IMG/VR virus record: IMGVR_UViG_3300027280_000002 | Location: 32,001-96,000 of that record | DNA length: 64,000 nt | From: a virus | Strand: one strand, 5' to 3' | In this document: piece by piece, positions 30,038 to 54,304 of the stretch | Layout: each line of letters starts with the position of its first letter | How positions within the stretch are numbered: position 1 is the first letter of the stretch | Program-made: the position numbers and the translations under genes | The notes under the pieces: model-generated | Told to the model about the DNA's origin: nothing | The model's input: the letters and a program-made list of their open reading frames with translations, nothing else | Databases searched by the model: none

Positions 30038-30349
30038 ATGGCATACTTACCTGTAAATCCTTGTTGCACAGATGTAGTTTCAAACACTCCTTGTGGATGT
30101 TCAAGCACTACAAGCAATAATCCTTGTGCAACTGGGGTACATTATTCAAAGTCTATTACATACAATGGACCTGTATTACCTTGTTCAAATGTGCAACCTT
30201 GTGATGATTTAAACATTGCTTTGTCTAAAATTGACGCAATTATTTGTACATTGGTAAACCAACAAGCAATCAATACATCTGAAATTGCTACTATAAAGCA
30301 GCAAGTAATAAGTATAAATCAAACATTAACAACTTGTTGTGACTCATAA
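30038..30349 (+). CDS. Cys-rich small fibre-associated protein with coiled coil
   Basis: PCC...PCGC...ITYNGPVLPC (similar to VKYTGVDVP of the upstream gene). Confidence 0.7.
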   Translation: MAYLPVNPCCTDVVSNTPCGCSSTTSNNPCATGVHYSKSITYNGPVLPCSNVQPCDDLNIALSKIDAIICTLVNQQAINTSEIATIKQQVISINQTLTTCCDS

Positions 30350-30597
30350 TGGAAGCAATCTTAACACTAAATACAGCAGGAAATAATACTGGATCTTTTA
30401 ATCTGTTTTCAGACGTAGATGGATTTAGTGTTGCTTTTCAAACAAATGTAACTAAAACCCAGTTATTGAATGGGTATACAGCTGTGATGCCTGATTACAC
30501 TACTATAGTAAAAGTAGCATCAGGTTCAGTTTGTAAAAATAGTATTGAGATAACACTAGAACAAACAACCACAACAACCACCACAATAACACCGTAG
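30349..30597 (+). CDS. GPF-family paralog with poly-Thr tail, 82 aa
   Basis: LTLNTAGNNTGSFNLFSD...LLNGY...TTIVKV.S...C; ends TTTTTTTITP. Confidence 0.75.
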   Translation: MEAILTLNTAGNNTGSFNLFSDVDGFSVAFQTNVTKTQLLNGYTAVMPDYTTIVKVASGSVCKNSIEITLEQTTTTTTTITP

Positions 30598-30601
30598 GAC
30601 A

Positions 30602-33367
30602 ATGACAATACTTATAACATTAACTTTAGCAGGCATAGATACAGGTCCATTTGATCTATATTCTGATGCAGATAATTATCAAAATGCATTTGAGACTAAT
30701 GTTTCCAGACAAGATCTATTGAATGGTTACACTTCTAATAATGCCCCTGTTGGAACTACTACTGTTAGGTTAGATAGTACAAATCAGACTTGCGGTTCAG
30801 TGGATATATATTCTTGTGTTAGACCAAATTGTGATTTTACAGGAGAGATAATTTGTGATATTACAACAACTACAACCAGTACATCTTCATCTTCAACTAC
30901 AACTACTACTACTACATCAAGTGGACCTGGACCAATTACTTCACTATGTCTTTGGTCAACTCTTAACGAAGGAACCTCCGGAGAACTAGGAGTATATAAT
31001 ATAGACACCAATGTAGTAACTACAGTATTAGTTCCTAATGACTTTTTAGTAACCCAAGGTGTAACTAGACCTATATGTAGTACACAAAATAAACTTTGGT
31101 TAGCTAGTGAAACAGACCTTACCCAGAACAACTTTATAATTAGAGAATATGATGTAACTTTTACATCAGGTAATGTAGGTTTATCTTTTACAAGAGACAT
31201 TACTGTTAGCACACAAGGTATCCTATCATACCCTGGTTATTCTAGAGTTGGTTCTGAATGTACGGCACTAACTGCTATTAATGATACAAGTATAATAATA
31301 GTTTTTGGTGGACCAACTGCTACTGTTATTTCACCAGATGTATGGGGTTTTACTATTGATATAAGTCAAACAGGTAATATTGCTAAAAATCTAACATCTA
31401 GTATTGGAAGAACTGTTAAACCTGTAATAAATACCTATGGTAAGGTTGTTTCAAACCCTAGACTACTATATCTTAATAACGGTGATGTTATTACTAGTAT
31501 GAGGATGGATGGCGAAGTTGATGGTCCTTATAATGGGAATTATCTACAACAATACAACATTTCAAATAATGATCGTATAACTGGAACTATGAAGTTGCAG
31601 GATTTAGGCATTCCAGAATTTACCGTTAATTACACTTCTGAGAAATATATAGATATATTCTCAATAAATAGTAAATTATATGCTCTTCAACCAGAATTAA
31701 ATAGAGTATATGAAATATCACAAACTCCTGACTACCAACAACAATCATCAAATCTTGTAGGTACAAATGTAAAAAGTTTATCTACAACTAGTGGTTGTGC
31801 AGATATTACCCTTTATGCAGAACCAGAATGTGAATCTACTACAATACCTAATATGTACGACCAAGCAGGAGATGTGTACATAGGTCCAGTACCGTTTACG
31901 TATGCAGGTGTGACTGTTATGGCTAGTAGTACACTTGCTGCTGGATCTAACGGAATTGTTGGTACTGGTGGAGGGGTGACACTATATAAGTTGTGCGCTT
32001 ATACTGGACTAGTTATAGCCTATGACTTTGTTGTTCAAGGGTCCGTATTTGAAATTATACTAACGTTTGCTCAACCTGTAAATAATATTCCAATAACAGC
32101 TGCAGTACTAAATACCGTATTAACTGAAGAAGGTGAATTTAGTAATGGAGACATTTATCAAGTAGATACAAATACAGAAACTCCAACTCTTTCAATATCG
32201 ACAGGTTATGGAGTTAAGGTTATTGGTAACCAGTTTGGAGGAATAGATTATTATAATAATGACAATAATGGAGAGTTTATTGTAACTTGTGAAACTGACT
32301 ATACTATATTAACTTTATCAGGACAAGCTCCTACTGGTGGACCAGTTGGATTAGGATGTACTGTACCACCTCTAAATTGTAATAGAATATTTAGTGAACC
32401 TAGTCAAGGAAGAGACTGTGTTCCTGGAGTGTGTGCTCCTCAAAACAACTGGCCATCTTCAGGTCCTGAATATAAAAAGCTCTACTCACACAATGTTGCA
32501 ACAGGAGTTTTAGAAGAAATACCATACCCAGCAGCAAGCGCTTTCACGACTCCTAACAGTGATGTTAGTGAAACTTATTTAATAAATCAACTACTGTTAA
32601 CAAATGCAGAAAGTCTTACAACAAGTTTTAGATTTGCAAGATATAGATATAATGAGTCATCAACTGGGGTACCTCAAAACCTTGATTGGGACGGCATAGT
32701 TTATGAAATAGATAAAAATGATTTACCTGGTGTATTTAGTAATTTTATATATGGACTAAGTGCAATTAATGATGATGTAATAAGTCTTAATTACCAACGC
32801 ACTACTGCAGGTGGTGGTGGTCACATGGTGGTTGAAGCACAATTTGTACCAGGATCTACAACATTAGCAATAACTGAAAAATTTACAATACCTGAGCCAT
32901 TTAATGGAGGTAGTGAGAGTGTAGTAACTCTTAACGAAGATGGAACACCAAATAAATTTATAGCTTTACGATCAAACGAACCTGTGATAATTTCACAATT
33001 TGATTATGCTACAGGTAATTTTGAAGGTGATGTTGAATTATCTGCTCCAGGAAACCCTGAAAACTATAGAACTGGAGGAGACATGTGTGTAATTGGTGAC
33101 TTCTTATATATTTCTATAAAAGATTTACCTAATAATAACACTGACTTATGGAAGGTTAGTTTCGATACACTAGAATGGAGCATTGCAGAGTCTGATGATA
33201 GTTATAATGGTGGAAGTTCAGGAAGTAAACCAAGCTGTAGAATAAGTAATGGATTTACATCATTTGATCCACCGCCATCTACTACAACTACTAGTACAAC
33301 AACAGGGCTGCCAGCAGGAGTAAAAACAATATGGACTACATTTTCAGCCTACACATCCCCAATATAA
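30602..33367 (+). CDS. Modular appendage protein: GPF domain, Thr linker, three beta-rich modules
   Basis: ITLTLAGIDTGPFDLYSD N-terminus; poly-Thr tracts; 921 aa. Confidence 0.75.
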   Translation: MTILITLTLAGIDTGPFDLYSDADNYQNAFETNVSRQDLLNGYTSNNAPVGTTTVRLDSTNQTCGSVDIYSCVRPNCDFTGEIICDITTTTTSTSSSSTTTTTTTSSGPGPITSLCLWSTLNEGTSGELGVYNIDTNVVTTVLVPNDFLVTQGVTRPICSTQNKLWLASETDLTQNNFIIREYDVTFTSGNVGLSFTRDITVSTQGILSYPGYSRVGSECTALTAINDTSIIIVFGGPTATVISPDVWGFTIDISQTGNIAKNLTSSIGRTVKPVINTYGKVVSNPRLLYLNNGDVITSMRMDGEVDGPYNGNYLQQYNISNNDRITGTMKLQDLGIPEFTVNYTSEKYIDIFSINSKLYALQPELNRVYEISQTPDYQQQSSNLVGTNVKSLSTTSGCADITLYAEPECESTTIPNMYDQAGDVYIGPVPFTYAGVTVMASSTLAAGSNGIVGTGGGVTLYKLCAYTGLVIAYDFVVQGSVFEIILTFAQPVNNIPITAAVLNTVLTEEGEFSNGDIYQVDTNTETPTLSISTGYGVKVIGNQFGGIDYYNNDNNGEFIVTCETDYTILTLSGQAPTGGPVGLGCTVPPLNCNRIFSEPSQGRDCVPGVCAPQNNWPSSGPEYKKLYSHNVATGVLEEIPYPAASAFTTPNSDVSETYLINQLLLTNAESLTTSFRFARYRYNESSTGVPQNLDWDGIVYEIDKNDLPGVFSNFIYGLSAINDDVISLNYQRTTAGGGGHMVVEAQFVPGSTTLAITEKFTIPEPFNGGSESVVTLNEDGTPNKFIALRSNEPVIISQFDYATGNFEGDVELSAPGNPENYRTGGDMCVIGDFLYISIKDLPNNNTDLWKVSFDTLEWSIAESDDSYNGGSSGSKPSCRISNGFTSFDPPPSTTTTSTTTGLPAGVKTIWTTFSAYTSPI

Positions 33368-33374
33368 ATAAGCT

Positions 33375-34724
33375 ATGGAAGGAAAAATAACAAAAGAAGT
33401 ATCAAAAAAGATTAAGGAATTAGCTATTCAATATCCTCAAGCAGTTTCTATTGGTTTGGGTAAAAAAATAACTAATGGAGTTGATACTGGAGAATTTGCT
33501 ATAGTTATATCTATACCAAAAAAGAAGAAACTTTCTGAACTTACATCTTCTGAAATAATAGTTGATAATGTAACTATAGAAAATGAAGGAGTGGTAAAAG
33601 TAGATATTATAGAAGAAACTATTATACAACATTTAGGATGTGACGCATTTTGTGGTAACACAGCAGCAGGTTCAAATAATGCAGCTAATAGAGCAACCAA
33701 TCAACTGATGCAAGGAGGTATTTCCTTCTCTAGCAGAAATAATACAAAAACTGTAGGAACATTAGGAGGAATGGTAAAACATGTAGAAACTGGTACAACC
33801 GTAGGTTTAACTAATAATCATGTATCAATAAATGATGCTTTTTACACTTCAGATAGAGACATAAATAATCAATACTTAAATGATGCATTTCCAGTTAATC
33901 GTGTGTATCAAAATGGAGAAAATGGTCCTAACACTCCTGTTAGTAATAATATGGGAGTTAGTCTAAGGTATGTACCTATTCATAAAAAAAGTACAGGTAT
34001 ATGGAATCAAGTAGATGCAGCTATCTGTTCTATAGTTGAATCTAGATTTAATATAAATACTGCTTGGAATCAAATAGGGTTAGAATCTATATTAGGTAGT
34101 ACTGCTCCACCTTTTGCTAGTACAGCTGAATTAGATTTATTATTAACTATCAATCCTCGTGTATATAGTTCTGGAAGAACAACTGGACCAAAAGGATTAA
34201 TGCCTGAATGTCCTATGACAATATCAGCAGTTGATGCACTTGTTACCAGTATAGGATACCAAATGCAGAATCCTACACAAGCAAACTTAGCAGATGCTCA
34301 GAATAGTCCTTATTATGTAGTCTGTCAATTTGATAGAGCTATTAAGTTTGTAAAACCAAATAACGATACACCTGACAGTACAGTTCCAGGATGTATAAAT
34401 CCTATATTTAGTGGAGATTCTGGATCTTTTCTTTTAGCAGAATTAAATGGGACTATTAAAATAATAGGACTTTGTTATGCAGGAAGTTCAAATAGTCAAG
34501 GTCAAGTAACCACAGGAATCGCCTGTAGGATAGATGATGTAGTACAACAATTAGGAATAGCTGCATATGATCCAGATGATGTATTAGCTGGAAGATTAGC
34601 TGACCCTGACAGTATAATATATATTACAGAACCAGGAACAAGTGATGATAAAATAAGATCTTGTAATTCCAAAACATACTGGCAAGCAGGTTTTACAGAT
34701 ACATTAGAAAATCAATGCGTATAA
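33375..34724 (+). CDS. Trypsin-like (clan PA) serine protease, Nal1-like architecture
   Basis: GTLGG, LTNNHV (His), VDAA (Asp), GRTTG, GDSGS (Ser); N-terminal IGLGKKITNG..AIVI..KKK segment. Confidence 0.85.
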   Translation: MEGKITKEVSKKIKELAIQYPQAVSIGLGKKITNGVDTGEFAIVISIPKKKKLSELTSSEIIVDNVTIENEGVVKVDIIEETIIQHLGCDAFCGNTAAGSNNAANRATNQLMQGGISFSSRNNTKTVGTLGGMVKHVETGTTVGLTNNHVSINDAFYTSDRDINNQYLNDAFPVNRVYQNGENGPNTPVSNNMGVSLRYVPIHKKSTGIWNQVDAAICSIVESRFNINTAWNQIGLESILGSTAPPFASTAELDLLLTINPRVYSSGRTTGPKGLMPECPMTISAVDALVTSIGYQMQNPTQANLADAQNSPYYVVCQFDRAIKFVKPNNDTPDSTVPGCINPIFSGDSGSFLLAELNGTIKIIGLCYAGSSNSQGQVTTGIACRIDDVVQQLGIAAYDPDDVLAGRLADPDSIIYITEPGTSDDKIRSCNSKTYWQAGFTDTLENQCV

Positions 34725-34735
34725 TAAATTAAGAT

Positions 34736-35824
34736 ATGTTAATACAAATAAATATAACAATTCCTCCAACTGGCAGTGCTGGACCATTTGATTTATTTTC
34801 AGATGCAAATGCATACAGTTCTCCATTTCAAACACAAGTTCCAGCTACTGCTTTAGAAAATGGCTATGTGGTAACACTTCCTATAGGTGCAACTATTATT
34901 AGAGTGTGTTCTGTTGGTACGTGTGAAAACTGTATTGACTTACCAACTAATTGTCCAACTACAACTACAACATCTACTAGTTCAACAACAACAACTACAA
35001 GTACAAGTAGTACAACTACAACAACTACCACTGCACCTCCGCCATATGAATTTAACTTTGAGTTATATACACAAACTCCAGGTTATATAGGAACTGTAAA
35101 TTTAGTAATAAATGTAGATGGTTCTCCTGTAACAAATACAACAATAACTAGTGGGGCTGATTTTGCATCTGGAACTATCAATGTACTAGAAGGTCAAGTT
35201 GTAACCGCAACTATTACTAACTCTAATGTAGGAACTTGGGATCTACGAAATATAGTTAGCAAAGACGGTAGCGCTTATCAACCTGAAGATGCTTGTGATG
35301 ATTGTAATCAATTAATTACACCACTTTTTTCTTCATATACAATGGAGCCATTTAATACACTTTTTCAATTTGGAGGAAATATAATTGTTCCAACAACAAC
35401 TACAACAACAAGTACAAGCACAAGTACAAGTACAAGTACAACAAGTACGACAAGTACAACTACTACTATAGCGTGTTGTTTAAACGGTCCAGTTGCAGTA
35501 ATTGTTCCACTTACTACCACCACTACAACTTCCTCAGGAGGCTTTCTTGAGCCAGCTCAGATTTCATCACAAGGTGCAAACAGTAGCGGTGCAGCATGTG
35601 GTTTAAATATAAATACTAATATATGGGCAAGAACTGAAATTACAGGAGTAATTTCGCCAGGTGATTCCTTGTGGAATAATCCAACTGGAACTAGTCCTTA
35701 TGTTGGAAATGATAACTTTAGACGTTTAAAACTAACAGAAAGCATAAGTGCTCAATCCGAAAAAGGAGTATATCTACCTGAAGGAGATAATGTGATCCAA
35801 TCACCTTTCTCAATATGTTCATAA
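34736..35824 (+). CDS. Modular appendage protein: GPF domain with Thr linkers
   Basis: GSAGPFDLFSD...LENGY...GATIIRVCS.GTCEN; three Thr tracts. Confidence 0.75.
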   Translation: MLIQINITIPPTGSAGPFDLFSDANAYSSPFQTQVPATALENGYVVTLPIGATIIRVCSVGTCENCIDLPTNCPTTTTTSTSSTTTTTSTSSTTTTTTTAPPPYEFNFELYTQTPGYIGTVNLVINVDGSPVTNTTITSGADFASGTINVLEGQVVTATITNSNVGTWDLRNIVSKDGSAYQPEDACDDCNQLITPLFSSYTMEPFNTLFQFGGNIIVPTTTTTTSTSTSTSTSTTSTTSTTTTIACCLNGPVAVIVPLTTTTTTSSGGFLEPAQISSQGANSSGAACGLNINTNIWARTEITGVISPGDSLWNNPTGTSPYVGNDNFRRLKLTESISAQSEKGVYLPEGDNVIQSPFSICS

Positions 35825-35843
35825 TCATTTAAAAAATAATAAA

Positions 35844-36095
35844 ATGGCACAACCACCACTAAAATTTCCTGTAAAAGTAACTCTCGTAAGCGCTTGTTCA
35901 AGCTCAGGACCTTGTGACATATATGGAAACTCAGATAATTTTACAGTACCTCTTGTTCAAAATGTATTGATATCTACACTTACTAGTCCTATTGGATATG
36001 TTTTTGTAGGAGGCGTTCCTTCTGGAACTACTATTTTAAGAATTCAAAATACAGGAACTTGTACAAACTATGTAGATGTGCCAATAACATTTTAA
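35844..36095 (+). CDS. Stand-alone GPF-family domain protein, 83 aa
   Basis: SGPCDIYGNSDNF...VPSGTTILRIQNTGTCTNYVDVP. Confidence 0.7.
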   Translation: MAQPPLKFPVKVTLVSACSSSGPCDIYGNSDNFTVPLVQNVLISTLTSPIGYVFVGGVPSGTTILRIQNTGTCTNYVDVPITF

Positions 36096-36100
36096 TAATT

Positions 36101-36769
36101 ATGACAGAATCAATACAAATACAATCAAATAACATTGGTATAGATGCAGGTCCATTTAATATATTTTCCCAAGTAAATGGATTTACAGAAGCATTTGAAA
36201 CTGATATAACACCTGTGCAATTACTTATCGGATTTATTTCTTATAATGCACCTGTTGGAACTACGACTATACGAGTGGTATCAACTAGTGAGGATTGTAA
36301 TGATTATGTAGAGGAGACAGTAGACGATGTTCCACTCTGTCAAGATAAGGTAGTGGTATTTCAAGTTTGTAACTCAAACGCTTTAGTAGATGATAATTTT
36401 GATGTTTTTCTAAATGGAGTTTTAATTGGAAACTTAGACTTGCAACAACCTGCTCAAGTTGGTTCAGTTTTCATAGGCAGTACTTCTACTTTAACTATAG
36501 GAACTTCAGATTTCACATGTCCTTTAAACTTAATGCAGGAGTTCTTTTTTGACCCTGCTCTTATATCTACTACTAATGTTATAGATATGGTAAATACCCA
36601 AAATAATGGAAACGGTAATGCAGGAACATTTGAAATAAGAAACTATGAATTAACCGGCACTGTGTTATCAAATGCTTGTATTGTAAAAAATGCTAATTTT
36701 GAAGGAGTTAGTGGTGATAGTTTTCAATTCGATTGGAACTATACTCAATGTTGTCCAGACCCCACATAA
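36101..36769 (+). CDS. GPF domain plus C-terminal beta module, 222 aa
   Basis: ATG 36101; GIDAGPFNIFS...APVGTTTIRVVS...CNDYVE. Confidence 0.75.
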   Translation: MTESIQIQSNNIGIDAGPFNIFSQVNGFTEAFETDITPVQLLIGFISYNAPVGTTTIRVVSTSEDCNDYVEETVDDVPLCQDKVVVFQVCNSNALVDDNFDVFLNGVLIGNLDLQQPAQVGSVFIGSTSTLTIGTSDFTCPLNLMQEFFFDPALISTTNVIDMVNTQNNGNGNAGTFEIRNYELTGTVLSNACIVKNANFEGVSGDSFQFDWNYTQCCPDPT

Positions 36770-36801
36770 AAAAGTTCTCTTTTGTTGGTTTTAGAGAACT
36801 T

Positions 36802-36833
36802 CTCCTAGGGACTACATGTCCTTAGGAGTTTTT
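36802..36833 (+). terminator. Rho-independent terminator closing the appendage locus
   Basis: CTCCTAGGGAC-TACAT-GTCCTTAGGAG-TTTTT, preceded by a second hairpin AAGTTCTCT...AGAGAACTT. Confidence 0.8.
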
Positions 36834-36836
36834 ATT

Positions 36837-36914
36837 TATAACGAGATTAGTTATAAAGAATAAGTGTCTCTAGTAAATTTATTTGTAATATCCAAAATAA
36901 ATTCCATATCTTTA
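36837..36914 (+). promoter_or_regulatory. 25-bp conserved site plus Bacteroidota-like promoter
   Basis: TATAACGA-N5-GTTATAAAGAAT, 20 nt, then TTTG-N21-TATCTTTA. Confidence 0.6.
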
Positions 36915-36939
36915 CCATATTTAACTAAAACCACATACT

Positions 36940-38181
36940 ATGTCGTACTCTGAAGATTTACTCGTCCAGTTAAAATCAATGTTAGCTTGGAAGAAGAGTA
37001 AAAAGTTTTATGCTGAGAAGTTGCAAATTACAGAAGATGAAGTGAATGATTTGCTAAAAGATATTAAAAAGGAAAATAAAGATCCTTTAGAAGAATTTAC
37101 AAAAGAGTCAAGTAAGTTTGAAGAATTAGAATTTGTAAGGAAGGTAAACAAAGAAAAGGGTACAGTAGAAAGTACTGTTACTTTAGACTTTGAACCAAAA
37201 AGTGAAATAGATTTAGCTGCATTGCACAAAATAGATCTATCTAAATATATAATTACTAATTACTGGTCTAAACTACTCCCTAGTGGAAAGTTTACATCTT
37301 CTGTGTTTTCTAAAAGAAAACAACCTAAAGATTATACACCAGAAGACTTTAAACAGTTTTTAGAAAACTATAAGTCAAACTACATTCCAACTCCTACACC
37401 AGAAAGAAACGATCACAAAGATCTTGTAGATATTGAGTTATCTCTTTCAGATTTTCATTTAGCAAAACGATATGTAGATGGAGATAATGATCCTGGAACT
37501 AGAGCTGTTAGATTTATTAACGTAGCTCAAAAGCTAATAGACAAAGTTAAATCAGTATATGATATAAATAGAGTGGTCTTCCCTATATCAAATGATTTTT
37601 TCCATACCGATAATTATCAAAATCAAACAACAAATGGAACACCTCAAGATGTCATATTAGATTATGCCACTGAGTATGAATTAGGATTTTCTATTCTTGT
37701 AGACACCATTAAGATGTTAAAGTCAAACTCTTTGGATGTTCAAGTGATATTGGTTCAAGGTAATCATGATAGAACTAAATCATTTTATTTAGCACATGCG
37801 CTAGATGTATACTTTCAAGATGAACCAAATGTATTCTTTGATAGAGAAGAAGGTTTAGTAAAAGCAACCGTAATAGGTAATACATTCATTGGTTTTCATC
37901 ACGGTAATTGTAAAATAGAGGCACTACCTTTATTATTTGCAACACACCCAAAGTATAGTAAATGGTTTGGAGATTCTACATATAGAGAAGTTCACACTGG
38001 TGATAAACATCACTATATGGCTAAAGAAATCAAAGGAGTGAGAATACAGCAAATGCCTAGTTTATCTGGAACAGATAGGTGGCATAAAGATAATAATTTT
38101 GTACATAGTGTACGAGCTGCTCTAGCTTTAGTCTATGACTTTAAAGTAGGAAAGGTAGCTGAATTTGAAGAAAGAATATAA
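36940..38181 (+). CDS. Calcineurin-like metallophosphoesterase with N-terminal HTH-like segment
   Basis: SDFH, NDFFH, GNHD, FHHG, GDKHH motifs. Confidence 0.85.
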   Translation: MSYSEDLLVQLKSMLAWKKSKKFYAEKLQITEDEVNDLLKDIKKENKDPLEEFTKESSKFEELEFVRKVNKEKGTVESTVTLDFEPKSEIDLAALHKIDLSKYIITNYWSKLLPSGKFTSSVFSKRKQPKDYTPEDFKQFLENYKSNYIPTPTPERNDHKDLVDIELSLSDFHLAKRYVDGDNDPGTRAVRFINVAQKLIDKVKSVYDINRVVFPISNDFFHTDNYQNQTTNGTPQDVILDYATEYELGFSILVDTIKMLKSNSLDVQVILVQGNHDRTKSFYLAHALDVYFQDEPNVFFDREEGLVKATVIGNTFIGFHHGNCKIEALPLLFATHPKYSKWFGDSTYREVHTGDKHHYMAKEIKGVRIQQMPSLSGTDRWHKDNNFVHSVRAALALVYDFKVGKVAEFEERI

Positions 38182-38183
38182 AC

Positions 38184-38327
38184 ATGGCAACAAAATACGG
38201 AAAACCTACCCCAGGTAAAAATGTAAAAGCTCCTAAGGTTCGTCCTTATAATATGAAAAATAATTATATGAGAGAGGCTGATCAATTAGGAGGTATACTA
38301 GGTAACAGAACACGCAAAACACCATAA
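38184..38327 (+). CDS. Small basic protein, 47 aa
   Basis: Manual: MATKYGKPTPGKNVKAPKVRPY...; fills the gap exactly. Confidence 0.6.
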   Translation: MATKYGKPTPGKNVKAPKVRPYNMKNNYMREADQLGGILGNRTRKTP

Positions 38328-38328
38328 G

Positions 38329-39057
38329 ATGGCAACACTAAGAAAATTAGTTTCAGATGTGCGATCTATGCACAAGATATTATCAACAGACGCACTTATC
38401 ACAGATCGAGCAATTGCTTCTGAGGTTAAGAATAATGCCCAATTGTTAATTAAGAGAGAAACTAATTTAAGAAAACTATGGGCTAGTGATACATTATTTA
38501 CTACCATCCCATGTTTAGAAATGAAAGAAGTACCTATTTCAGAGTGCTGCGAGTATGCAGATGAATGTAATGTTTCAAGAACAGTATTTAAATTACCCAG
38601 AATATCTGAAGGTAATTATCAATACATAATTCAAGGAGTATATTCTGTAGATGCTATGGGAGGTAGAGGTACTAAGTTAAAAGAAATAACTATTAACAGA
38701 TTTATAAATTTGTTAAAGTTACCCATAGTAAAGAATGATTATTATTTTTGGATATCTAATGGATATTTATATGTTAATAATCCTTTACTAAAAGCTATAA
38801 GATTAGCTGCATTTTTTGAAGAAGATGTACCTAATGAAATCATGTACCCAGAATGTGGGTGTGGAACTCCTGAATATACAGATGAGGAATATTGTAAGAA
38901 TCCTTTAGATAAAGAATATGCATTACCTGGTTATTTAGAACAGCAAGCATTGTCACTAACCTCTCAAAAACTTCTAGCTACATATTTTCAAATTAAAACA
39001 GACATGAGTAATGAGGGAATAGATGGTCAGTCACCAAACGCCCAACCTACTCAATAA
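38329..39057 (+). CDS. Putative tail ring protein
   Basis: 242 aa; position in crAss-like tail block (ring, IHF, ring, muzzle). Confidence 0.6.
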   Translation: MATLRKLVSDVRSMHKILSTDALITDRAIASEVKNNAQLLIKRETNLRKLWASDTLFTTIPCLEMKEVPISECCEYADECNVSRTVFKLPRISEGNYQYIIQGVYSVDAMGGRGTKLKEITINRFINLLKLPIVKNDYYFWISNGYLYVNNPLLKAIRLAAFFEEDVPNEIMYPECGCGTPEYTDEEYCKNPLDKEYALPGYLEQQALSLTSQKLLATYFQIKTDMSNEGIDGQSPNAQPTQ

Positions 39058-39067
39058 TAAATTATAT

Positions 39068-39547
39068 ATGTCAAGAGTAGCAGTTGATTGGAGAAGTGCT
39101 AGTAAGAAAAGTTATGAGGATTTTTGTAAAAAGAACCCTCTAATATCTCTGAATTTTGATGAGTGGAAAAATATTCTTTATTCATTTAATGAATCATTTA
39201 AACACTATATCTTAGAAACAGGAGAAAGGGAAAAACTCCCTACTGGTTTTGGAGAGTTTTCTATAAATAAAAAGAAAAGAAAAAGAAGTAAAGATATTGA
39301 TGGTAAAGAGTTTGTAAACTTACCTATTGATTGGGTAAAAACTAAAGAGAAAGGTAAACGTATCTATAACTTTAACTATCATACAGAGGGTTATTTCTTT
39401 GGATGGATGTGGTTTAAACAAACTGCAAGATTTAGAAACTCAGACCTTTGGTACTTTAAACCTTCTAGAAGAACATCTAGAGACCTGTCTCATTACTTAA
39501 AGACAGATTCTAAATATCAACACACTTACAATGAATGGAAAAAATAA
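39068..39547 (+). CDS. HU/IHF-like protein of the crAss-like tail block
   Basis: KLPTGFGEFSINKK; IDWVKTK, NYHTEGY; start moved to ATG 39068. Confidence 0.7.
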   Translation: MSRVAVDWRSASKKSYEDFCKKNPLISLNFDEWKNILYSFNESFKHYILETGEREKLPTGFGEFSINKKKRKRSKDIDGKEFVNLPIDWVKTKEKGKRIYNFNYHTEGYFFGWMWFKQTARFRNSDLWYFKPSRRTSRDLSHYLKTDSKYQHTYNEWKK

Positions 39548-39550
39548 GTT

Positions 39551-40555
39551 ATGTCATACTACTATAAATACGATTTTGTATCCCCTGAACCTCTATACGC
39601 AACAGTAAAAGAAGAACTTAAAAGTTACTTTGATACTGGAGCTGTAGATGATTTATTATTTCCTACTTACTTAGACAAATGTCTTAGAAAGATGGGTAGG
39701 ACAACTTATCAAATTACCACTGAAGTTTTACTTATAGATGACTATCAATCAAGACTTCCAGATAATTTTCATGCAGTTAGAGAAGCGTGGATGTGTGCAG
39801 TTATACCAGGAAACCCTTATCCTGCAGCATCTTCATTTTATTCACAAGCTGCCAATGCTACCACCATTCAAGTTGCTCCATTAACTATTGGAGGTTCACC
39901 CTGTAATAGACCTGATTGTCAACATCCTAGTTGTGACGGAACTTGTATGCCAGAGGTTGTGCAAGCTGTTTATAAAACAAATGCTGAGATACCTAGATCT
40001 TATAGACGAACATACTTACTTCAACCAGGTAATATATCTGCAAGAAAAAACTGTAACTTATCATATACTAGTTCTTTTGATCAGTATAATCAATTAGCTG
40101 TAGCAGGTGCTAACTTTACTCCTGGTGCTTCTTCTTACGATTCTTTTGACATTAGAGATAATAAGTTTATAACAAATTTTAGAAATGGTGTAATACACTT
40201 AGTCTTTTATTCAACAGATTATGATAAAATAGGAAATCAATTAATTCCTGACAATTATCGTGTTCGAGAATATATTGAATCTTTTATTAAGTTTAAAGTT
40301 TTTGAGACTTTAACTAATCAAACAGTAGATGAAACATTTAATCAACTACAAACTAAGTTAGTTTACCATAAACAAGTAATGGATGAAGCTTGGATAATGG
40401 CTGAAACAGAACTTAAAAAACAAACAGTATATCAGAAACAAAGAGCAATTGTTACTGACTTAAATCGTTTTAATCAATATGAACTTCCTGACTCAAGATC
40501 TCAAGTATCTGGTAGATACACTAACAGGTACGGAAGACGTAATGGAAATAGTTAA
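39551..40555 (+). CDS. Tail tubular/ring protein
   Basis: LPDNF...LIPDN motifs; directly upstream of the muzzle gene. Confidence 0.65.
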   Translation: MSYYYKYDFVSPEPLYATVKEELKSYFDTGAVDDLLFPTYLDKCLRKMGRTTYQITTEVLLIDDYQSRLPDNFHAVREAWMCAVIPGNPYPAASSFYSQAANATTIQVAPLTIGGSPCNRPDCQHPSCDGTCMPEVVQAVYKTNAEIPRSYRRTYLLQPGNISARKNCNLSYTSSFDQYNQLAVAGANFTPGASSYDSFDIRDNKFITNFRNGVIHLVFYSTDYDKIGNQLIPDNYRVREYIESFIKFKVFETLTNQTVDETFNQLQTKLVYHKQVMDEAWIMAETELKKQTVYQKQRAIVTDLNRFNQYELPDSRSQVSGRYTNRYGRRNGNS

Positions 40556-40560
40556 TACAC

Positions 40561-43500
40561 ATGGCTACTAAAAAAGAAATTGAAGACGATAAGAAGAAGA
40601 AGGCAGCTTCTAAGGCAAAAACTGATAAAGCTCAACAAGGTCAAGTAAGACTAGAGTTTAATCAGGCAATGTCTGGCTTAAATATGGATAGCACAATTAA
40701 CCAAGTAGCGACAGGTAGTCTTACTTATGCGTTAAATGCAACTGTAGAAAACTTTGACTCTAGTTCTGTTAATTATCAAAATGAACCTGGTAACGAACCT
40801 TGTTTTAGTTTTCCTGATGGTTATGAACTTATTGGAAAACATACTATTCCTGAAAAAGACAAAGACATATTCTTTTTAACTAACCCCACTACTGGAGGTA
40901 GTGAAATTGGATTCATGTTTAATAATGATTGTCAATATAAAACGCTAATCAATGCTCCATGTTTAAACTTTAATGTAGATCATCCTATACCAAAAGTCGT
41001 ACATAGAATAACAAACTGTACTACAGAAATATATTGGACCGATGGATTTAATGCTAGAAGATATTTGGATATAGAAAACATTCCTTATATACTTGCACCA
41101 GGAACAACTCCTACTTGTGATCCTGTAGAAACAGATCAACTAGACTGTAATCAACTTAAGATACAACCTGACTTTCCAATACCATTTTTAAATGTAGATG
41201 AGGTGACTAATGTAGGATCATTAGTTGCTGGAACCTACCAATTTGCTATACAGTATTCTGATGCAGTAGGTAATGATTTAACGTCATACTACTCAATAAC
41301 CAACCCATGTCCAATAGCTGATGCACTTATAACAACAGTAAATTTTAACTATCCAGTAGGAAAATCTATAGTTGTAAAAATATCTAACTTAGATATCTCA
41401 GGACAATTTAATTACTTTAATTTAGCAGTAATTAAAACTATAAATAATATTTCCTCTGTTGAATTAGTAGGGACATATAACATTACAGACGTTAGTGAAG
41501 AAATAACATATACAGGTGCAGATCAAACAGCCAAAAGATTATCTATGTCTGATATATTTGAGAAATATCCGTATTATGACATAGCACAAGATATAACATC
41601 TGTACAAGATATTCTAGTATGGGATAATTTAACTTCTATAGATAGGATAAATTATCAGCAGATAGCTAGTAACATAACTTTGAAGTGGGAATCTTATAGG
41701 ATACCTCCTGGTGAAAATTATTCTGATGAGAATAATGCTACTAATTTACGTGGATACATGCGTGATGAAGTTTATGCATTTGAGATAGTGTTCCTTCTTA
41801 AGAATGGAAAACAAACTGATTCTTTTCACATTCCAGGACCTCCTAACCTTAATATAAATCCTGATGTACCTGACACAAATGATGACTTTATTGGTGATCC
41901 AGATTATGTTGAGAATGGTATAGGGTATAGCTCATATTGGAAGATATATAACAACGCTATTAATTTAGGAGCTTCTCCAACTGCTACAAGTGCTGACGAT
42001 TACAAAGGACCATGGGAATATGGAGAATTTGCATATTGGGAATCAACAGAAAAATACCCTTGTAATACAGATGTATGGGGAGACTTAGCTGATCAACCAA
42101 TCAGACATCATAAATTTCCAGATGTATTGGTTAGTCCTATTATAGAAAATAGCACAATCACTTATGATGGTAATAACATTGTTCCTACAATGCAGGATGA
42201 TGCAGTTTTTCCTATTGGAGTAAAAATTAACAATAGTCAAATCTCAGGTCTGATACTAACCTCTGATCTAACACAAGACCAAAAAGATGATATTGTAGGG
42301 TTTAAGATTGTTAGAGGAGATCGTAGTACTAACAGGTCAGTAATAGCTAAGGGTATACTCAGAAACATGGGCAAGTATTCAAGAAATGATCAAGAGTACT
42401 ATTACCCTAATTATCCCTATAATCAAGTTTCTGGAGAAGACTCTTTTCTTCAAGAAAACAATAATGCATGGAATTATAAATCTAAAGCATGGCTCGTATA
42501 TATGCCAGATCAAGAAACAACAAGTTTATTTGATTGGGGTTCTCTTAATTTTGGTAGTGTAGATATAGATGTTAATGTTGAAGAAGGTGTATTTACATAT
42601 ACAAGTATTGTTAATGGTAGAAATACACAAGCTAAGATTCTACCTAATTGTATTATAGAAGTATGTTCTCTTACACGACCTGTAGCACTTAGGGGTCTTA
42701 TGACTGTAGGTCCTGCAGATTTTGATGCATGGCGTGGATTTCATGGGCAAAAAGTGTTTGCTGCAGGATATGCAATTAAATCAGAAAATCCTTTTAATAA
42801 CTTTAATTTTGATGGTACAGTAGCTTCTAGACGATGGTTGGATTATCAAGGTTCATTAACTTCAGGAGGTGGTGATACGTGTACTGTTCTTACCAATGTG
42901 GATTATGATTATGATTATGATAATTTATATGGACAGGTTACTGAAAGTGGAGATGGTCATATATGGAAACCTCAAGTTTCAGGAGCTAATTCTGGCTTAT
43001 CAATTCCAAGAATAAATTTAAATGGTATTATTCCTGGTCCTTGTTTTGAAAGTGATGACATTTCTACTGAAGAAATAGAAGATGACGCATTAATAACATA
43101 TCCTCCAGGTACATTTGATCCAGCTAACGAATGTCCAGAAGGACAAAGTGCAGCTTGTCAAGAATGTATAAAAACAGAAAATCCAGATAACATAACTCCT
43201 TGGCCACAAGCTGCTTTTGGGCAGCCTACAAATCCCCTTCCTCAACTTAGTAACGGTGTCCCATCACAATCTTTTCCGCTTCCAACAAATCAAACAAATA
43301 CATTTACTCCAGCAGTTGATGTAAATCAAATGGACGGATCTATAAATGGGACAACTTCAAGATGGAGTAGAAGATCATGTTTAGCATGTGATAGAGATAT
43401 ACCTATTAAACCATTAGAGGGAGCAGAATATGATTCAGTAAAAGATATTTTAGAAAAACAAATATTTAATTCTCCTGACACGTCTTTTGGACAACCTTTC

Positions 43501-46500
43501 TTAGGTAGTGTATTAAAACTAGAGAGTGTAATGTTTGGGGCAGGTAAAGGTCATTTTGTAGAAGTTAAAGATAATGCCAAATACAAACTTTTATCTAAAG
43601 AAGCTCAAGAAGATGCACTTAGGAGTTCAGAAAGAATAGCTAGCATAGGTTCTGGTGGATTTAATGCTGGTATAATGTTTACAGTTTATCAGTCCTATCT
43701 TACTATATATATAAATGGAATAACAAGAAAGAACTATGGAATGTCTTTCAATTCACGAGCAAACTATGACTACTCTTACCCTATTGATAATAATGTTAAA
43801 GGTGGCATCAAACAGAGAGAAATAGAACTTACAAGATATTTAATACCAGGAGTACAATCATTTAATAATAATGATTTGCCTATAAATAACTGGAATAGAG
43901 AATCATCTGTATATATAAAAACAAAAATTAATGATGACATATTAGCTTTTCCTCTTCCACAAGATACGCCTAGTTTAACATCACCTGATGGTACATCTAG
44001 CATGGTTGAGTTCTCTAGATTTAACATAAGTGAAATTGGAGCATGTGATGCACCAGAGAAAGAAAAGGACATGAAGGTGGTTTCATATTATGCTTCTATG
44101 AAAAACATTTTACCTAATCAATGGGGACAAATAAATTCATTCAAAAGAATTGATACTGGATATCAAAAAGGCATAGCTTCCTCAGGAGAGGATATTATAT
44201 TTGGTGGAGATGTTTATATATCTAGATTTACATTTAAAACTAAACTACCATTTTTTATAGACAATAGAGTAAATGCGCCTGATGATTCCGATATATTCTT
44301 TGATGAAATAGGCAACATTGCATATCCTAAATATTGGCACTCTGCTAGATCTATATTAAACGCTTATAGAGTTGAGGCTAATGATTCAAACATGCTTAAC
44401 CTTATATCTACTAAAGCACATAATTTAGATTGTCCAAGTGATCCTTCATTAATTACTGCACCATCAACTACTGCTCAACCTGTATCTACTTTTGCAGGGA
44501 CATACAGATCATTCTATGATGGATTTATGTATTTATTTGCATACGGTGTACCAAACTTTTATTGTGAAAGTGTATACAATACAGACTTAAGGCAAGCTTT
44601 TAATACTAAAGAAGGTGACTTTTGGCCCCATGTAAGCAGTAGTATTCCAGATGATTGGGTACAAGAAACAAACGTGCCTATTGCTCAAGATAATACTTAT
44701 TACTATAATGTAACATTCTCTAAACAAAATAAAGAGAATGTATTTACTCAACTCCCTCCAGATTGGGAAAATGATTTATGTTTTACATACTTTCCGTTTA
44801 GAGCTATTTATTCAGATACACAAGGAGACAGTCCTGACAATAGAGTAAATAACTGGTTAGTGTATAGAGCTATTTCTTATCACGACTTTCCACAAAACTA
44901 TGGTAATCTTACATCATTAGATGGTGTACAAGATAAGGCTATCTTGGCAAGATTTGAGAACAAGGCATTGCTGTATAATAATTTATTAACTATTGATACA
45001 AGTAATCCTCAAGCAGCTTATGTAGGTAACTCTAGACTTTTTGATGGGTCACCCCCATTAGATTTTGCTGAAACAGACTTAGGTTACGTAGGGTCACAAC
45101 ATAAGTTTCTACTTAAGGTCCCTTATGGTCAAATTACTGCAGACGCTAAGAGGGGACAAATCTTTTTATTAAATGGAAATAAACCTGTTGACATGACAGC
45201 TTATGGGTCAGGGGTGAATAGATTTATGACAAGTAGTTTACCTTTTGAAATTTTAGAATACTTTCCAGAAGTAAATGTAGACAATAATTTTACAGGATTT
45301 GGATTACACGGTGTGTACGATAGTAAGTTTGACAGAGTGATTATTACAAAAATTGATTATATTCCTACAGACAGTTCGGTATTCTACGATAAAGATGATA
45401 AAAACTTTTATATACCAATAGAGGGTTATACTGATACTTCTGGTAATCAAACTATCAAACAAGAAGTATTCTTAAACGATAGAAAGTATTTCTGTAATAA
45501 GTCATGGACTATGTCATTTGATTTTAATACAAAAAGCTGGATATCGTTTCATAGTTATTTACCAAACTTTTATATAGGAGAAAATAACTTTTACTATTCA
45601 GGGATTAACGGATGCTGTACAAACTTTACTGCTATTCTTGATAATCCAAGTAGAAGTAAAATAGATACAGAGTCTCCTAATTTAGAGATGATAGTTGGAG
45701 AACTTGATGGCGTTGTTAAAATTACTACAACAACCACCACTACAGGTCTTCCTTTATTTACCACTACTACTACAACAGCATATGTTCCTGATTGTGAGTT
45801 TGATATAAATGTAGTAAGTAAGTTAGATTGTCAAATGGAAGGAGTGGGTTACATTACTGTACCAACCCCTACTACTACAACAATATGTGCTAGACCTGAT
45901 AGTTTAGTTATTTCTAATTTTACAGAAGGTTATCAAATTACAGGACAAGCTTCTCCAGTTTTAGGTACACTCTCTGCACAGAAAGCTTGCGCAGTGGGTA
46001 GTTTTGTAAGAGTAGCAAATCCTCTAGAAACAGTAGATATAAATTTCCAATATCAATATGAATTTCCAAAACCAGTTACAGTGGGTCAGATTTTATATTT
46101 TGGAGGTGGTAGTGATTGCACATTTGTACCAGATGGCTGGTACACTAGTAGTGAAGATGGTTGGAATAAAGCCTACTATGTTGAAAATTCAAGATTAGAA
46201 GAAATAATACCATGTGATTGTAATACACTTACCACAACAACCACTCTTTATGATGGGGAATTAACAGAATGCTGTGGTATTATATACAATGATGTAAATG
46301 GTAATGTAAAACTTTCAAACATAGCATCGTCTCACTCTGTAGATTCAGATAATTTTCACACTATAGTTATCCCAGGATACACTACTGGTAAGTTAGCTGT
46401 TGGCCCAACTGCTCTATACGGAGTTTCACCAGGTATCAGTACATCATTTAAGAAATGGACAATTACAACAAGCCCATGGACTGTAGTAGCAGATTCAGAT

Positions 46501-47253
46501 TTAGTAATAGCTGATAATGCATTTGGTACAACTGCTGGAGTGGTAGTTAAAGATGACAGTGCAATTATTGCAATAGATACAGCTCAAGGATTTATAGTAG
46601 AAATAGATACAACAAGTGGAATTCCATCACAGAAAATTCTAGTGGGAGGTGGTTATACATACACTACAAATCTATTATATACTACTAAAGGTAAACTAAT
46701 AACAATAGGAGAAGATGGTGGAGGAGTGTTCCATTACTTCCAATGGGATTATGATAACGAAACAGTAACCCCAGAAATTGATATAACAATCACTGCACCT
46801 GAATTTGGTAGTGAGGTTGTAGCAATATATGAATGTGATTGTGACATTACGATAATTACAAAAGAAGCTAATCAATATAATGTATTTAGCGTATCACCAA
46901 TATCTCCTTATGGTGTTATATTTTCAGGAAATATAACAGATGATAATCGAAGCATTTGGAACTCTTTTGATGCTACTAACGTAACTCAAATGCAATCATG
47001 CGTTAATCCAATTGGAGGACAAGAGTTTACAACAACTACAAGTACCACAGAAAGCCCAAGTACTACTACTACTACATCAATATACCCTTGTTATAAATGG
47101 GAGATAACAGGCCCTGTAGGAATTATTATTACTGACTGTAATGGGCTACCTGAAGTACTAAGTGTTCCTAGTGGAGTGACACAACAATTTTGTACAAACG
47201 TTAATACTGGAGGACCTGCTGGAGCAACCTTTATAGGAAACTGTGATATATAA
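40561..47253 (+). CDS. Tail stabilisation/muzzle protein (P22 gp10-like), N-terminal part with a Thr-rich modular extension
   Basis: GLNMD..YALNA, IYWTDG.N, GYMRDEVYAF, IRHHKFPD, IFGGDVYI, SWISFHSYLP; poly-Thr modules from ~45720. Confidence 0.8.
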   Translation: MATKKEIEDDKKKKAASKAKTDKAQQGQVRLEFNQAMSGLNMDSTINQVATGSLTYALNATVENFDSSSVNYQNEPGNEPCFSFPDGYELIGKHTIPEKDKDIFFLTNPTTGGSEIGFMFNNDCQYKTLINAPCLNFNVDHPIPKVVHRITNCTTEIYWTDGFNARRYLDIENIPYILAPGTTPTCDPVETDQLDCNQLKIQPDFPIPFLNVDEVTNVGSLVAGTYQFAIQYSDAVGNDLTSYYSITNPCPIADALITTVNFNYPVGKSIVVKISNLDISGQFNYFNLAVIKTINNISSVELVGTYNITDVSEEITYTGADQTAKRLSMSDIFEKYPYYDIAQDITSVQDILVWDNLTSIDRINYQQIASNITLKWESYRIPPGENYSDENNATNLRGYMRDEVYAFEIVFLLKNGKQTDSFHIPGPPNLNINPDVPDTNDDFIGDPDYVENGIGYSSYWKIYNNAINLGASPTATSADDYKGPWEYGEFAYWESTEKYPCNTDVWGDLADQPIRHHKFPDVLVSPIIENSTITYDGNNIVPTMQDDAVFPIGVKINNSQISGLILTSDLTQDQKDDIVGFKIVRGDRSTNRSVIAKGILRNMGKYSRNDQEYYYPNYPYNQVSGEDSFLQENNNAWNYKSKAWLVYMPDQETTSLFDWGSLNFGSVDIDVNVEEGVFTYTSIVNGRNTQAKILPNCIIEVCSLTRPVALRGLMTVGPADFDAWRGFHGQKVFAAGYAIKSENPFNNFNFDGTVASRRWLDYQGSLTSGGGDTCTVLTNVDYDYDYDNLYGQVTESGDGHIWKPQVSGANSGLSIPRINLNGIIPGPCFESDDISTEEIEDDALITYPPGTFDPANECPEGQSAACQECIKTENPDNITPWPQAAFGQPTNPLPQLSNGVPSQSFPLPTNQTNTFTPAVDVNQMDGSINGTTSRWSRRSCLACDRDIPIKPLEGAEYDSVKDILEKQIFNSPDTSFGQPFLGSVLKLESVMFGAGKGHFVEVKDNAKYKLLSKEAQEDALRSSERIASIGSGGFNAGIMFTVYQSYLTIYINGITRKNYGMSFNSRANYDYSYPIDNNVKGGIKQREIELTRYLIPGVQSFNNNDLPINNWNRESSVYIKTKINDDILAFPLPQDTPSLTSPDGTSSMVEFSRFNISEIGACDAPEKEKDMKVVSYYASMKNILPNQWGQINSFKRIDTGYQKGIASSGEDIIFGGDVYISRFTFKTKLPFFIDNRVNAPDDSDIFFDEIGNIAYPKYWHSARSILNAYRVEANDSNMLNLISTKAHNLDCPSDPSLITAPSTTAQPVSTFAGTYRSFYDGFMYLFAYGVPNFYCESVYNTDLRQAFNTKEGDFWPHVSSSIPDDWVQETNVPIAQDNTYYYNVTFSKQNKENVFTQLPPDWENDLCFTYFPFRAIYSDTQGDSPDNRVNNWLVYRAISYHDFPQNYGNLTSLDGVQDKAILARFENKALLYNNLLTIDTSNPQAAYVGNSRLFDGSPPLDFAETDLGYVGSQHKFLLKVPYGQITADAKRGQIFLLNGNKPVDMTAYGSGVNRFMTSSLPFEILEYFPEVNVDNNFTGFGLHGVYDSKFDRVIITKIDYIPTDSSVFYDKDDKNFYIPIEGYTDTSGNQTIKQEVFLNDRKYFCNKSWTMSFDFNTKSWISFHSYLPNFYIGENNFYYSGINGCCTNFTAILDNPSRSKIDTESPNLEMIVGELDGVVKITTTTTTTGLPLFTTTTTTAYVPDCEFDINVVSKLDCQMEGVGYITVPTPTTTTICARPDSLVISNFTEGYQITGQASPVLGTLSAQKACAVGSFVRVANPLETVDINFQYQYEFPKPVTVGQILYFGGGSDCTFVPDGWYTSSEDGWNKAYYVENSRLEEIIPCDCNTLTTTTTLYDGELTECCGIIYNDVNGNVKLSNIASSHSVDSDNFHTIVIPGYTTGKLAVGPTALYGVSPGISTSFKKWTITTSPWTVVADSDLVIADNAFGTTAGVVVKDDSAIIAIDTAQGFIVEIDTTSGIPSQKILVGGGYTYTTNLLYTTKGKLITIGEDGGGVFHYFQWDYDNETVTPEIDITITAPEFGSEVVAIYECDCDITIITKEANQYNVFSVSPISPYGVIFSGNITDDNRSIWNSFDATNVTQMQSCVNPIGGQEFTTTTSTTESPSTTTTTSIYPCYKWEITGPVGIIITDCNGLPEVLSVPSGVTQQFCTNVNTGGPAGATFIGNCDI

Positions 47254-47255
47254 CT

Positions 47256-48128
47256 ATGGCAACTAAAATAATAAACTTAAAAATAACAAGCTCTAGTCCT
47301 CAAGTAGGACCTTTTGAGATTACGGATGACTTATCAAATGTCCTAGGAACCGATGTGTCTTTAAGTAGCCTTATTGTGGGCATAAGCTATAGGGTAGATG
47401 TTTCAGTTTCAGTGATTACTTTAACCTCTTCAGGTGATTGTAATTTTGTAAAAGAATTTTCAGTTAGAGATTCAGTACCTAGTATAGAATATATAACAGC
47501 TACATATACTCAAATTAAAACAGGATGTGTATGGACACACTTAAGAAACGATACTTTATATAATTATTACTATGGAGATATAGCTCCTTACATAATCGAG
47601 TATCCTTTTTCATATAAGTATCATGATCAAATATTACAGAATATAAAAGACTATAGTAAAGTGTATGTATATCTTCCATCTACATTAGGGTCATTTGATT
47701 CTAATAGCAAGGTGCAAGTAGATGATAAATATTTTAATAAAGCTATTCTATATAACGATCAACAATCTACAGGAGTAATAGAACTTGTTCCTAAACCAAT
47801 GAATGATTTAAGTTCATATTTAAATTATCCTATACTTAATTCTAATAGTAAAACTATTACTTTTGCAAAGACAGATAGTTTCTATCAATATAACACTTTC
47901 TGGGCACTACAAAAAAATGATAAGATTCCTTTATTTAAAACATCTTGTGAATCTGGCTCAATAGATAAAGTAGTTAATCAAGATAATATGAACTATGGTG
48001 ACTTATCATTTAAGAAGTCACAACTAAGAGCTAAAGATTTAAAGGTGAGACACATACTAGACAACTCTTCTATAACACATATAGTAAGTCAATTTATTGT
48101 AGCACCAGCACAAATATCATATAAGTAA
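47256..48128 (+). CDS. GPF domain fused to the presumed C-terminal part of the muzzle protein
   Basis: SSPQVGPFEITD...SSGDCN, then WTHL...YNYYYG..PYIIEYP...FNKAILYN.QQSTG...RAKDLKVR. Confidence 0.7.
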   Translation: MATKIINLKITSSSPQVGPFEITDDLSNVLGTDVSLSSLIVGISYRVDVSVSVITLTSSGDCNFVKEFSVRDSVPSIEYITATYTQIKTGCVWTHLRNDTLYNYYYGDIAPYIIEYPFSYKYHDQILQNIKDYSKVYVYLPSTLGSFDSNSKVQVDDKYFNKAILYNDQQSTGVIELVPKPMNDLSSYLNYPILNSNSKTITFAKTDSFYQYNTFWALQKNDKIPLFKTSCESGSIDKVVNQDNMNYGDLSFKKSQLRAKDLKVRHILDNSSITHIVSQFIVAPAQISYK

Positions 48129-50647: not shown

Positions 50648-50648
50648 T

Positions 50649-54224: not shown

Positions 54225-54297
54225 CGAACCTGGTGATAAAGAATTACTAGAATAGGTTATCCTATTTTGGAAAGTTCTATAAATAATAATACATTTG
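54220..54297 (+). promoter_or_regulatory. 25-bp conserved site plus Bacteroidota promoter
   Basis: TATAACGA-N5-GTGATAAAGAAT, 21 nt, then TTTG-N20-TACATTTG. Confidence 0.7.
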
Positions 54298-54304
54298 TTA
54301 AATT

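Follow-up and report, generated by a model that had tools for sequence, protein, structure and literature searches.

We analysed a 64,000-nucleotide (nt) stretch of viral DNA, bases 32001–96000 of the 111,329-bp IMG/VR record IMGVR_UViG_3300027280_000002, which is judged 98% complete; the whole of this stretch is referred to below as the window. Six of its open reading frames (ORFs) begin with versions of one N-terminal domain, here called GPF after its conserved motif. Five copies lie in a run of genes that we term the slot, and the sixth follows the gene for the N-terminal part of the muzzle, which is a homologue of the podovirus tail nozzle. The six genes, with lengths in amino acids (aa), are as follows.

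GPF1, 30349..30597, plus strand: domain at aa 1–72 with a Thr tail, 82 aa; AlphaFold2 model with a predicted local distance difference test (pLDDT) score of 82.
GPF2, 30602..33367, plus strand: domain, Cys hairpin NCDFTGEIIC, Thr linker and a payload of about 800 aa; 921 aa.
GPF3, 34736..35824, plus strand: domain with Thr-linked modules; 362 aa.
GPF4, 35844..36095, plus strand: domain alone, 83 aa, with a 9-aa N-terminal leader and three Cys.
GPF5, 36101..36769, plus strand: domain at aa 4–76 and a beta-rich payload of about 140 aa; 222 aa.
GPF6/MUZ-C, 47256..48128, plus strand: diverged domain at aa 4–66 and a C-terminal muzzle fragment at aa 92–290.

The original prediction, made from the DNA letters, had proposed a common N-terminal pattern in six ORFs. 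All six were present with the starts it gave, including ATG 36101 as the true start of GPF5 rather than TTG 36059, and their N-termini align. Its description of the architectures was also accurate: one copy stands alone (35844, 83 aa), one carries only a Thr tail (30349, 82 aa), three carry differing payloads (30602, 34736 and 36101; 921, 362 and 222 aa) and one is fused to a conserved tail-protein fragment (47256), which BLASTP identified as the muzzle C-terminus. Leave-one-out searches with a hidden Markov model (HMM; Z=1000) recovered the five slot copies with E-values of 1.5e-18 (30349), 1.3e-19 (30602), 3.8e-14 (34736), 4.8e-11 (35844) and 6.5e-19 (36101), and pairwise identity among these five N-termini is 27–50% over the domain of about 72 aa. 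The sixth copy, 47256, which has lost three residues after the GPF motif, gave a weak match (12.9 bits, E 4e-3) and is diverged but real. With an HMM built from external sequences only, it scored 18.5 bits and its orthologues in relatives 27–43 bits (GPF1 scored 100.7 bits), and profile–profile comparison aligned the post-muzzle type with the slot type over 69 columns (probability 98.7%, E 4e-16). No other stop-to-stop segment of the window matched the GPF HMM better than E 0.15, and the whole 111-kb record contains exactly six copies.

The family consensus, of about 72 aa, is MTVLITLTTAG-DTGPF-LYSD-DGY--AFET-V-K--L-AGY-S-LVP-GTTIIRV-S-G-C-NYIDI, and the domain contains one nearly invariant Cys. 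In GPF1 numbering, the invariant surface residues are R55, S58, C62 and N64. The earlier statement that it belongs to no named family stands after searches of Pfam, PHROGs, NCBIfam and PDB sequences. At E<=0.1, Pfam returned no family for any of the six proteins, fn3 (PF00041) included, barring one irrelevant weak match. PHROGs and NCBIfam held nothing meaningful on the domain, and the family profile gave a single chance-level match among all PDB sequences (E 0.61), with no sequence similarity to the gp22, THA or THB chains of phage crAss001.

AlphaFold2, supplied with a 61-sequence alignment, modelled the domain as a seven-strand FN3-like beta-sandwich with one short helix (pLDDT 82); the model of full-length ORF 36101 had a pLDDT of 78.6. 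Residues 1–75 of the latter aligned with FN3 domains over 70–71 residues at VIA-align Z scores of 6.2–7.0 and a root-mean-square deviation of 2.2–2.6 Å, the top 16 matches all being FN3; another GPF model matched FN3 domains at Z 5.0–5.6, and across the two models the aligned lengths are 63–71 residues. Since Z below 8 may mean merely a common arrangement, the predicted match is one of fold class, not of function. Foldseek found nothing in the PDB at E<=1e-3 for the GPF models. In the ESM Atlas the matches were viral hypothetical proteins only, together with prealbumin-like sandwiches at a TM score of about 0.62, while BFVD yielded five proteins of the uncultured ‘Virus NIOZ-UU157’ (77, 77, 287, 417 and 939 aa) with the same set of architectures. 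A fold match to the C-terminal domain of RemZ (Z 5.6) tied with FN3 matches. We rejected the type IX secretion C-terminal sorting domain as an identity for GPF because the domain is N-terminal in the 150 listed matches described below and has no Pfam or NCBIfam match.

The likeness to dockerin/cohesin or pilin subunits that had been suggested holds only as a functional analogy, namely that one standard connector serves diverse payloads. Dockerin is a short calcium-binding helical module. GPF, in contrast, is about 72 aa long, and its all-beta model with one short helix and the lack of a Pfam match led us to reject a dockerin. As regards donor-strand pilins, the sandwich is predicted to be complete, with all seven strands present and no obvious donor-strand groove in the monomer model, although a monomer cannot exclude strand exchange.

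To define the family more broadly, we searched 1.84 billion representative sequences with the profile. At a threshold of E<=1e-3 the GPF family comprises at least 1,760 protein clusters (50% identity), of which 1,236 reach E<=1e-10. Among the best 150 matches listed, the domain starts at residues 1–4 except in P0006 (residue 7) and P0095 (residue 24) and, bar these two short leaders, lies within residues 1–75 of proteins of 78–894 aa; a Thr/Ser run follows it in 121 of the 150. The median length of GPF proteins is 200 aa. Domain-only ORFs of 72–110 aa recur in most relatives with several slot genes. Isolated phages, FpV4 and Lbo-JY46 among them, yielded no GPF by megablast or tblastn. Matches in 185,579 prokaryote genomes were limited to six contigs of metagenome-assembled genomes, and the five long enough to judge all have the same phage synteny. 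These contigs (L087–L092) were binned as Chthoniobacter, Woesearchaeota, Cytophagales, Bacteroidetes, Tissierellales and Sediminibacterium; three of the six bins are Bacteroidota, fitting a Bacteroidota host, and the remaining bins look like binning errors.

The genomic position of the family is fixed. In the viral loci compared (the best 80 of about 570), gene order was the same in all 80: capsid genes, a gene for a 1200-aa modular protein, a tail-fibre gene, a 103-aa gene and one to five GPF genes, then a metallophosphoesterase-like gene, ring protein 2, a 174-aa ORF, ring protein 1, the N-terminal part of the muzzle (muzzle-N) and finally GPF fused to the C-terminal part (muzzle-C). The records of five relatives, three of them complete genomes, each contain one to five slot copies plus a single post-muzzle copy, 291–309 aa long. 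In the window, the genes of the GPF region are tightly packed in the late structural block, with gaps of 4–19 nt, and the products of the GPF genes have no signal peptide or membrane segment.

The sixth copy is joined to the muzzle, which is encoded here by two ORFs, GPF6/MUZ-C and the gene upstream of it.

MUZ-N, 40561..47253, plus strand: N-terminal 1,680 aa of the muzzle, then about 550 aa of Thr-linked modules; Pfam crAss_MUZ, E 3e-35.

MUZ-N is 2230 aa long, with the motif WISFHSYLP at aa 1660 (about nt 45538). Its stop lies 2 nt before GPF6, which opens with the GPF domain, after which muzzle sequence resumes. Residues 92–290 of ORF 47256 matched residues 1463–1633 of the 1654-residue muzzle of Lbo-JY46 (BLASTP E 4e-21) and gp29 of FpV4 (E 3e-14), the latter alignment reaching the last residue (1961); the Pfam crAss_MUZ model did not match this ORF. 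In the unsplit muzzles of Lbo-JY46 and FpV4, the motif WIS(F/W)HSYLP is followed within about 30 residues by (V/I)W(T/R)H...YYG...P(F/Y)I(I/V)E(Y/F). The muzzle is also a single chain in other crAss-like phages. Every relative with the region covered has the split, with an extension of 96–578 aa, and in every such record a GPF copy is fused to the muzzle C-terminal fragment. An FpV4 alignment over residues 17–91 of ORF 47256 was discarded as spurious; true homology begins near residue 92, and GPF is therefore not an ancestral part of the muzzle. The crAss001 structure shows the corresponding region as a beta-propeller like that of the T7 nozzle (PMC10172136), and the muzzle-borne GPF would accordingly be expected on the periphery of a propeller rebuilt from two chains.

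We then considered what follows the domain. The proposal that payloads are interchanged was borne out: closely similar GPF domains usually carry unrelated payloads, and the payload of GPF2 is found on another carrier in relatives. Among 134 pairs of proteins with GPF domains at least 80% identical, only 11 showed any detectable payload similarity, and the C-terminal parts of 144 proteins fell into 93 unrelated groups. Payloads behind the Thr linker are swapped while the domain keeps 45–65% identity, and the domain is far better conserved than what comes after it. The alternative carrier has a representative in the window.

adh1200, 25318..28920, plus strand: conserved 115-aa Cys-rich N-terminus followed by Thr-linked modules, including Fib_succ_major.

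The payload of about 800 aa in ORF 30602 occurs in five relatives (L011, L015, L016, L024 and L028) at 32–42% identity, where it follows not GPF but an adh1200-type 115-aa N-terminus 84–90% identical to that of the window. The GPF3 payload was the most widespread of the three tested, being present in 34 GPF ORFs of the loci, and in L021 and L022 the ORF 36101 payload is contained within a protease fusion. Payload modules of the GPF proteins also occur in the muzzle extension and in a fibre-like protein. Few payloads have a recognisable domain, and those domains are of types that bind surfaces (Ice_binding, Fib_succ_major, NHL/SGL propellers and Lcl_C); in addition, residues 84–221 of ORF 36101 gave a weak fold match to a carbohydrate-binding module (2xhh, Z 6.0). 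Recombination through the GPF DNA itself was rejected, as the copies share almost no nucleotide identity. The only DNA repeats common to these genes are ACN-rich tracts encoding the Thr linkers, and these are probably the recombination sites for payload exchange.

Further observations concern the movement of these modules. The 449-aa protease encoded at 33375–34724 is a separate gene here; in relatives it forms the N-terminal part of a protein of about 1190 aa (L021:4951-8511) that bears Thr-linked payloads, including that of ORF 36101. The 921-aa GPF gene and the protease (30602–34724) lie between GPF1 and GPF3 in the window, and in several relatives (L012, L019, L021–L023, L053 and L061) the same pair is upstream of the tail-fibre gene. 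The cassette has therefore moved within the block. Dependence of GPF on the neighbouring protease was rejected, since many relatives with the region covered have no protease. A two-Cys hairpin-like motif (NCDFTGEIIC, DCRIEGC, DC-x-L-x-G) lies between the Thr linkers of several appendage proteins, with sites at 30827–30856, 25762–25780 and 45826–45850. As a candidate plug or socket peptide it was dropped; it is rare and moves with the payload in relatives.

Capsid and tail genes place the window among the crAss-like phages. The large terminase (13867), portal (15888) and crAss-type major capsid protein (19929) were assigned with Pfam and PHROGs, and Pfam E-values were 1e-32 for Crass_capsid, 2e-18 for CrAss_Ring_2 and 6e-7 for CrAss_Ring_1. 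Since the crAss capsid, ring proteins 1 and 2 and the muzzle are all present, the phage is crAss-like. It is distant from isolates: the best isolate match of the capsid protein is Leptolyngbya phage Lbo-JY46 at 25% identity, and the muzzle also matches Flavobacterium FpV-type, Cellulophaga phi4:1/phi17:2-type and epsilon crAss-like phages. The clade that bears GPF consists of uncultured crAss-like phages, relatives of ‘Virus NIOZ-UU157’. The genes bordering the slot are listed below.

TF360, 28943–30025, plus strand: tail-fibre gene, PHROG tail and tail-fibre families.
103-aa gene, 30038–30349, plus strand: Cys-rich/coiled-coil, adjoining the slot upstream.
Metallophosphoesterase-like gene, 36940–38181, plus strand: downstream border of the slot.
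Ring protein 2, 38329–39057, plus strand: Pfam CrAss_Ring_2, downstream border.
174-aa ORF, between ring 2 and ring 1, plus strand: downstream border.
Ring protein 1, 39551–40555, plus strand: Pfam CrAss_Ring_1, downstream border.

Immediately upstream of the slot, TF360 was found in 79 and the 103-aa gene in 75 of the 80 loci. By inspection, TF360 and the 103-aa protein apparently have in common a Cys-rich motif at the N-terminus and, after it, a helical segment; a second, longer version of the 103-aa type is present in many relatives and may represent a third class of payload carrier. TF360 and the 174-aa ORF had no match among PDB sequences. The metallophosphoesterase-like gene has DxH and GNHD motifs (PHROG ‘DNA repair exonuclease’, E 3e-52) and is conserved within the tail block directly upstream of ring protein 2; the same position holds tail-hub genes in crAss001 and an ‘exonuclease’ in FpV4. 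The GPF proteins contain Cys, as do tail and appendage proteins, whereas the cargo proteins have none. Between 13867 and 57001 the tail, fibre and appendage proteins have 5–40 Cys and the capsid protein has one; the three large post-muzzle proteins (48128–57001), presumed to be ejected cargo, have zero.

Taken together, a conserved N-terminus with variable C-termini, paralogues and a slot beside the tail-fibre genes are the signature of a virion-attachment domain. The same combination is familiar from tail fibres and tailspikes. T7 gp17 and the branched spikes of the K1-5/CBA120 type have conserved N-terminal anchors and exchangeable C-terminal receptor-binding parts. Like these, GPF proteins pair a conserved N-terminus with a highly variable C-terminus, occur as several paralogues per genome, are encoded in the tail-fibre block and exchange payloads between relatives. 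They differ in that GPF has no sequence similarity to such proteins and is an FN3-like sandwich with a Thr linker instead of a trimeric N-terminal adaptor, in that domain-only proteins exist and in that one copy is built into the muzzle. We therefore favour, with moderate confidence, the interpretation that GPF is a lineage-specific, FN3-like N-terminal carrier domain by which modular appendage proteins attach to the virion. Of the earlier proposal of a shared module for interchangeable payloads, the single homologous N-terminal module and the payload exchange are upheld, and docking or polymerisation is hypothetical.

On this interpretation GPF would fasten the proteins to a conserved place on the virion, most probably on the tail close to the muzzle or the tail fibres; the obligatory muzzle copy favours a tail over a head location. 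Fastening may run through contacts with the muzzle-borne copy or, alternatively, may use an intermolecular disulfide formed by the single nearly invariant Cys. Disulfides link the tail and fibre hubs of crAss001, and residues 1–26 of its gp22 dock in the tail hub (PMC10172136). The variable payloads (beta-propeller, carbohydrate-binding-module-like jelly roll, ice-binding-like, Fib_succ_major and Lcl_C-type) would act as adhesins or receptor binders.

Several points weigh against this interpretation. The fold match is generic, with Z below 8. Both the presence of the GPF proteins in virions and a docking partner are putative. The domain-only proteins GPF1 and GPF4 are conserved, which a pure payload anchor does not explain, and the domain must therefore have a role of its own beyond carrying. 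Finally, module number in the muzzle extension does not track GPF gene number, so that a version with ‘n sockets on a muzzle string’ is without support.

The domain-only proteins have a place in a more tentative and rather unlikely model, in which GPF is a self-associating connector and the six muzzle-borne copies at the tail tip nucleate docking or short polymerisation of free GPF proteins. The muzzle-borne copies would have arisen when the muzzle propeller was split, and adhesins and blank spacer subunits would be plugged onto the nozzle by swapping cassettes behind the Thr linker. Such an arrangement would parallel, without any relationship in sequence, the chain-like fibres on the split nozzle of phage A1002 and would be a new route to diversification of host recognition. 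In A1002, the split-nozzle fragment that completes the propeller is preceded by an Ig-like and a fibre-dock part and binds small fibre proteins (PMC13730344). As in A1002, GP4 and VP1 (PMC13730344), the muzzle is encoded by two ORFs, the C-completing fragment opens with an Ig/FN3-like domain, and small proteins of 80–220 aa that could dock there are encoded nearby. The systems differ in fragment order and in the length of the docking part, the GPF fragment having no long rope; moreover, the small GPF proteins share the muzzle-borne domain itself and not a separate fibre fold. The chain-like fibre subunits (A1002 gp40/gp41, GP4 gp80 and VP1 gp11) did not appear in fold searches, the library of which may lack the newest entries, and our searches, none of them aimed at the fibre proteins of A1002, GP4 or VP1, gave no homology to them.

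We also considered whether the GPF proteins decorate the capsid, the domain occupying a surface pocket like crAss001 gp21/gp29 or T4 Hoc and holding payloads on the head. The small size of the proteins (median 200 aa) and their layout of an N-terminal anchor and a distal domain recall gp21 and gp29, the N-termini of which bind capsid pockets and which carry a distal beta-sandwich or other domain (PMC10172136); that study anticipated that other crassviruses would have analogues not yet recognised, and copies of the domain alone could be understood as simple decoration proteins. In gp29, however, the beta-sandwich is distal, whereas in GPF it is the anchor, and the sequences are not similar. The GPF genes are placed between those for tail fibres and ring proteins and not beside those of the capsid, and wherever the region is covered one copy is part of the tail-tip muzzle, beyond the reach of a capsid hexon. 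We consider this location improbable.

There is a similarly small chance that GPF is itself the functional part, an accessory Ig/FN3-like glycan-binding domain in proteins that are loose or held on the virion by other means. Its FN3-like fold agrees with this, as do the conserved domain-only proteins, which would suit a domain that is active by itself. Phage structural proteins often bear Ig-like and FN3 domains as accessory parts, and GPF shares the fold class of these domains. Such accessory domains, however, are usually C-terminal or internal and dispensable, whereas GPF is missed by Pfam (E<=0.1), was N-terminal in every protein examined and is better conserved than the rest of the protein. 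In addition, the domain-only proteins would have nothing else to hold them on the particle.

It is very improbable that the GPF proteins lie outside the virion and that the domain is an assembly, targeting or regulatory tag, for example on proteins released at lysis or acting at the host surface: the putative nature of their virion membership and the lack of a family annotation leave some room for this, but the genes are packed into the late structural block, signal peptides and membrane segments are absent, one copy lies within an essential tail protein and the payload modules recur in the muzzle extension and the fibre-like protein.

The principle behind the attachment-domain interpretation is known. 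New are the family itself, the strict confinement of the domain to N-termini, the members that consist of the domain alone and the presence of a copy in a split muzzle. crAss-like phages are abundant, and their appendages and host recognition are poorly understood. A simple GPF signature at the N-terminus marks the swappable appendage genes throughout an environmental crAss-like lineage and ties these genes to the split muzzle. If GPF docks proteins on the tail, it would help to predict receptor-binding proteins from metagenomes, offer a natural scaffold for display and add a second, independent example of a split nozzle combined with small fibres.

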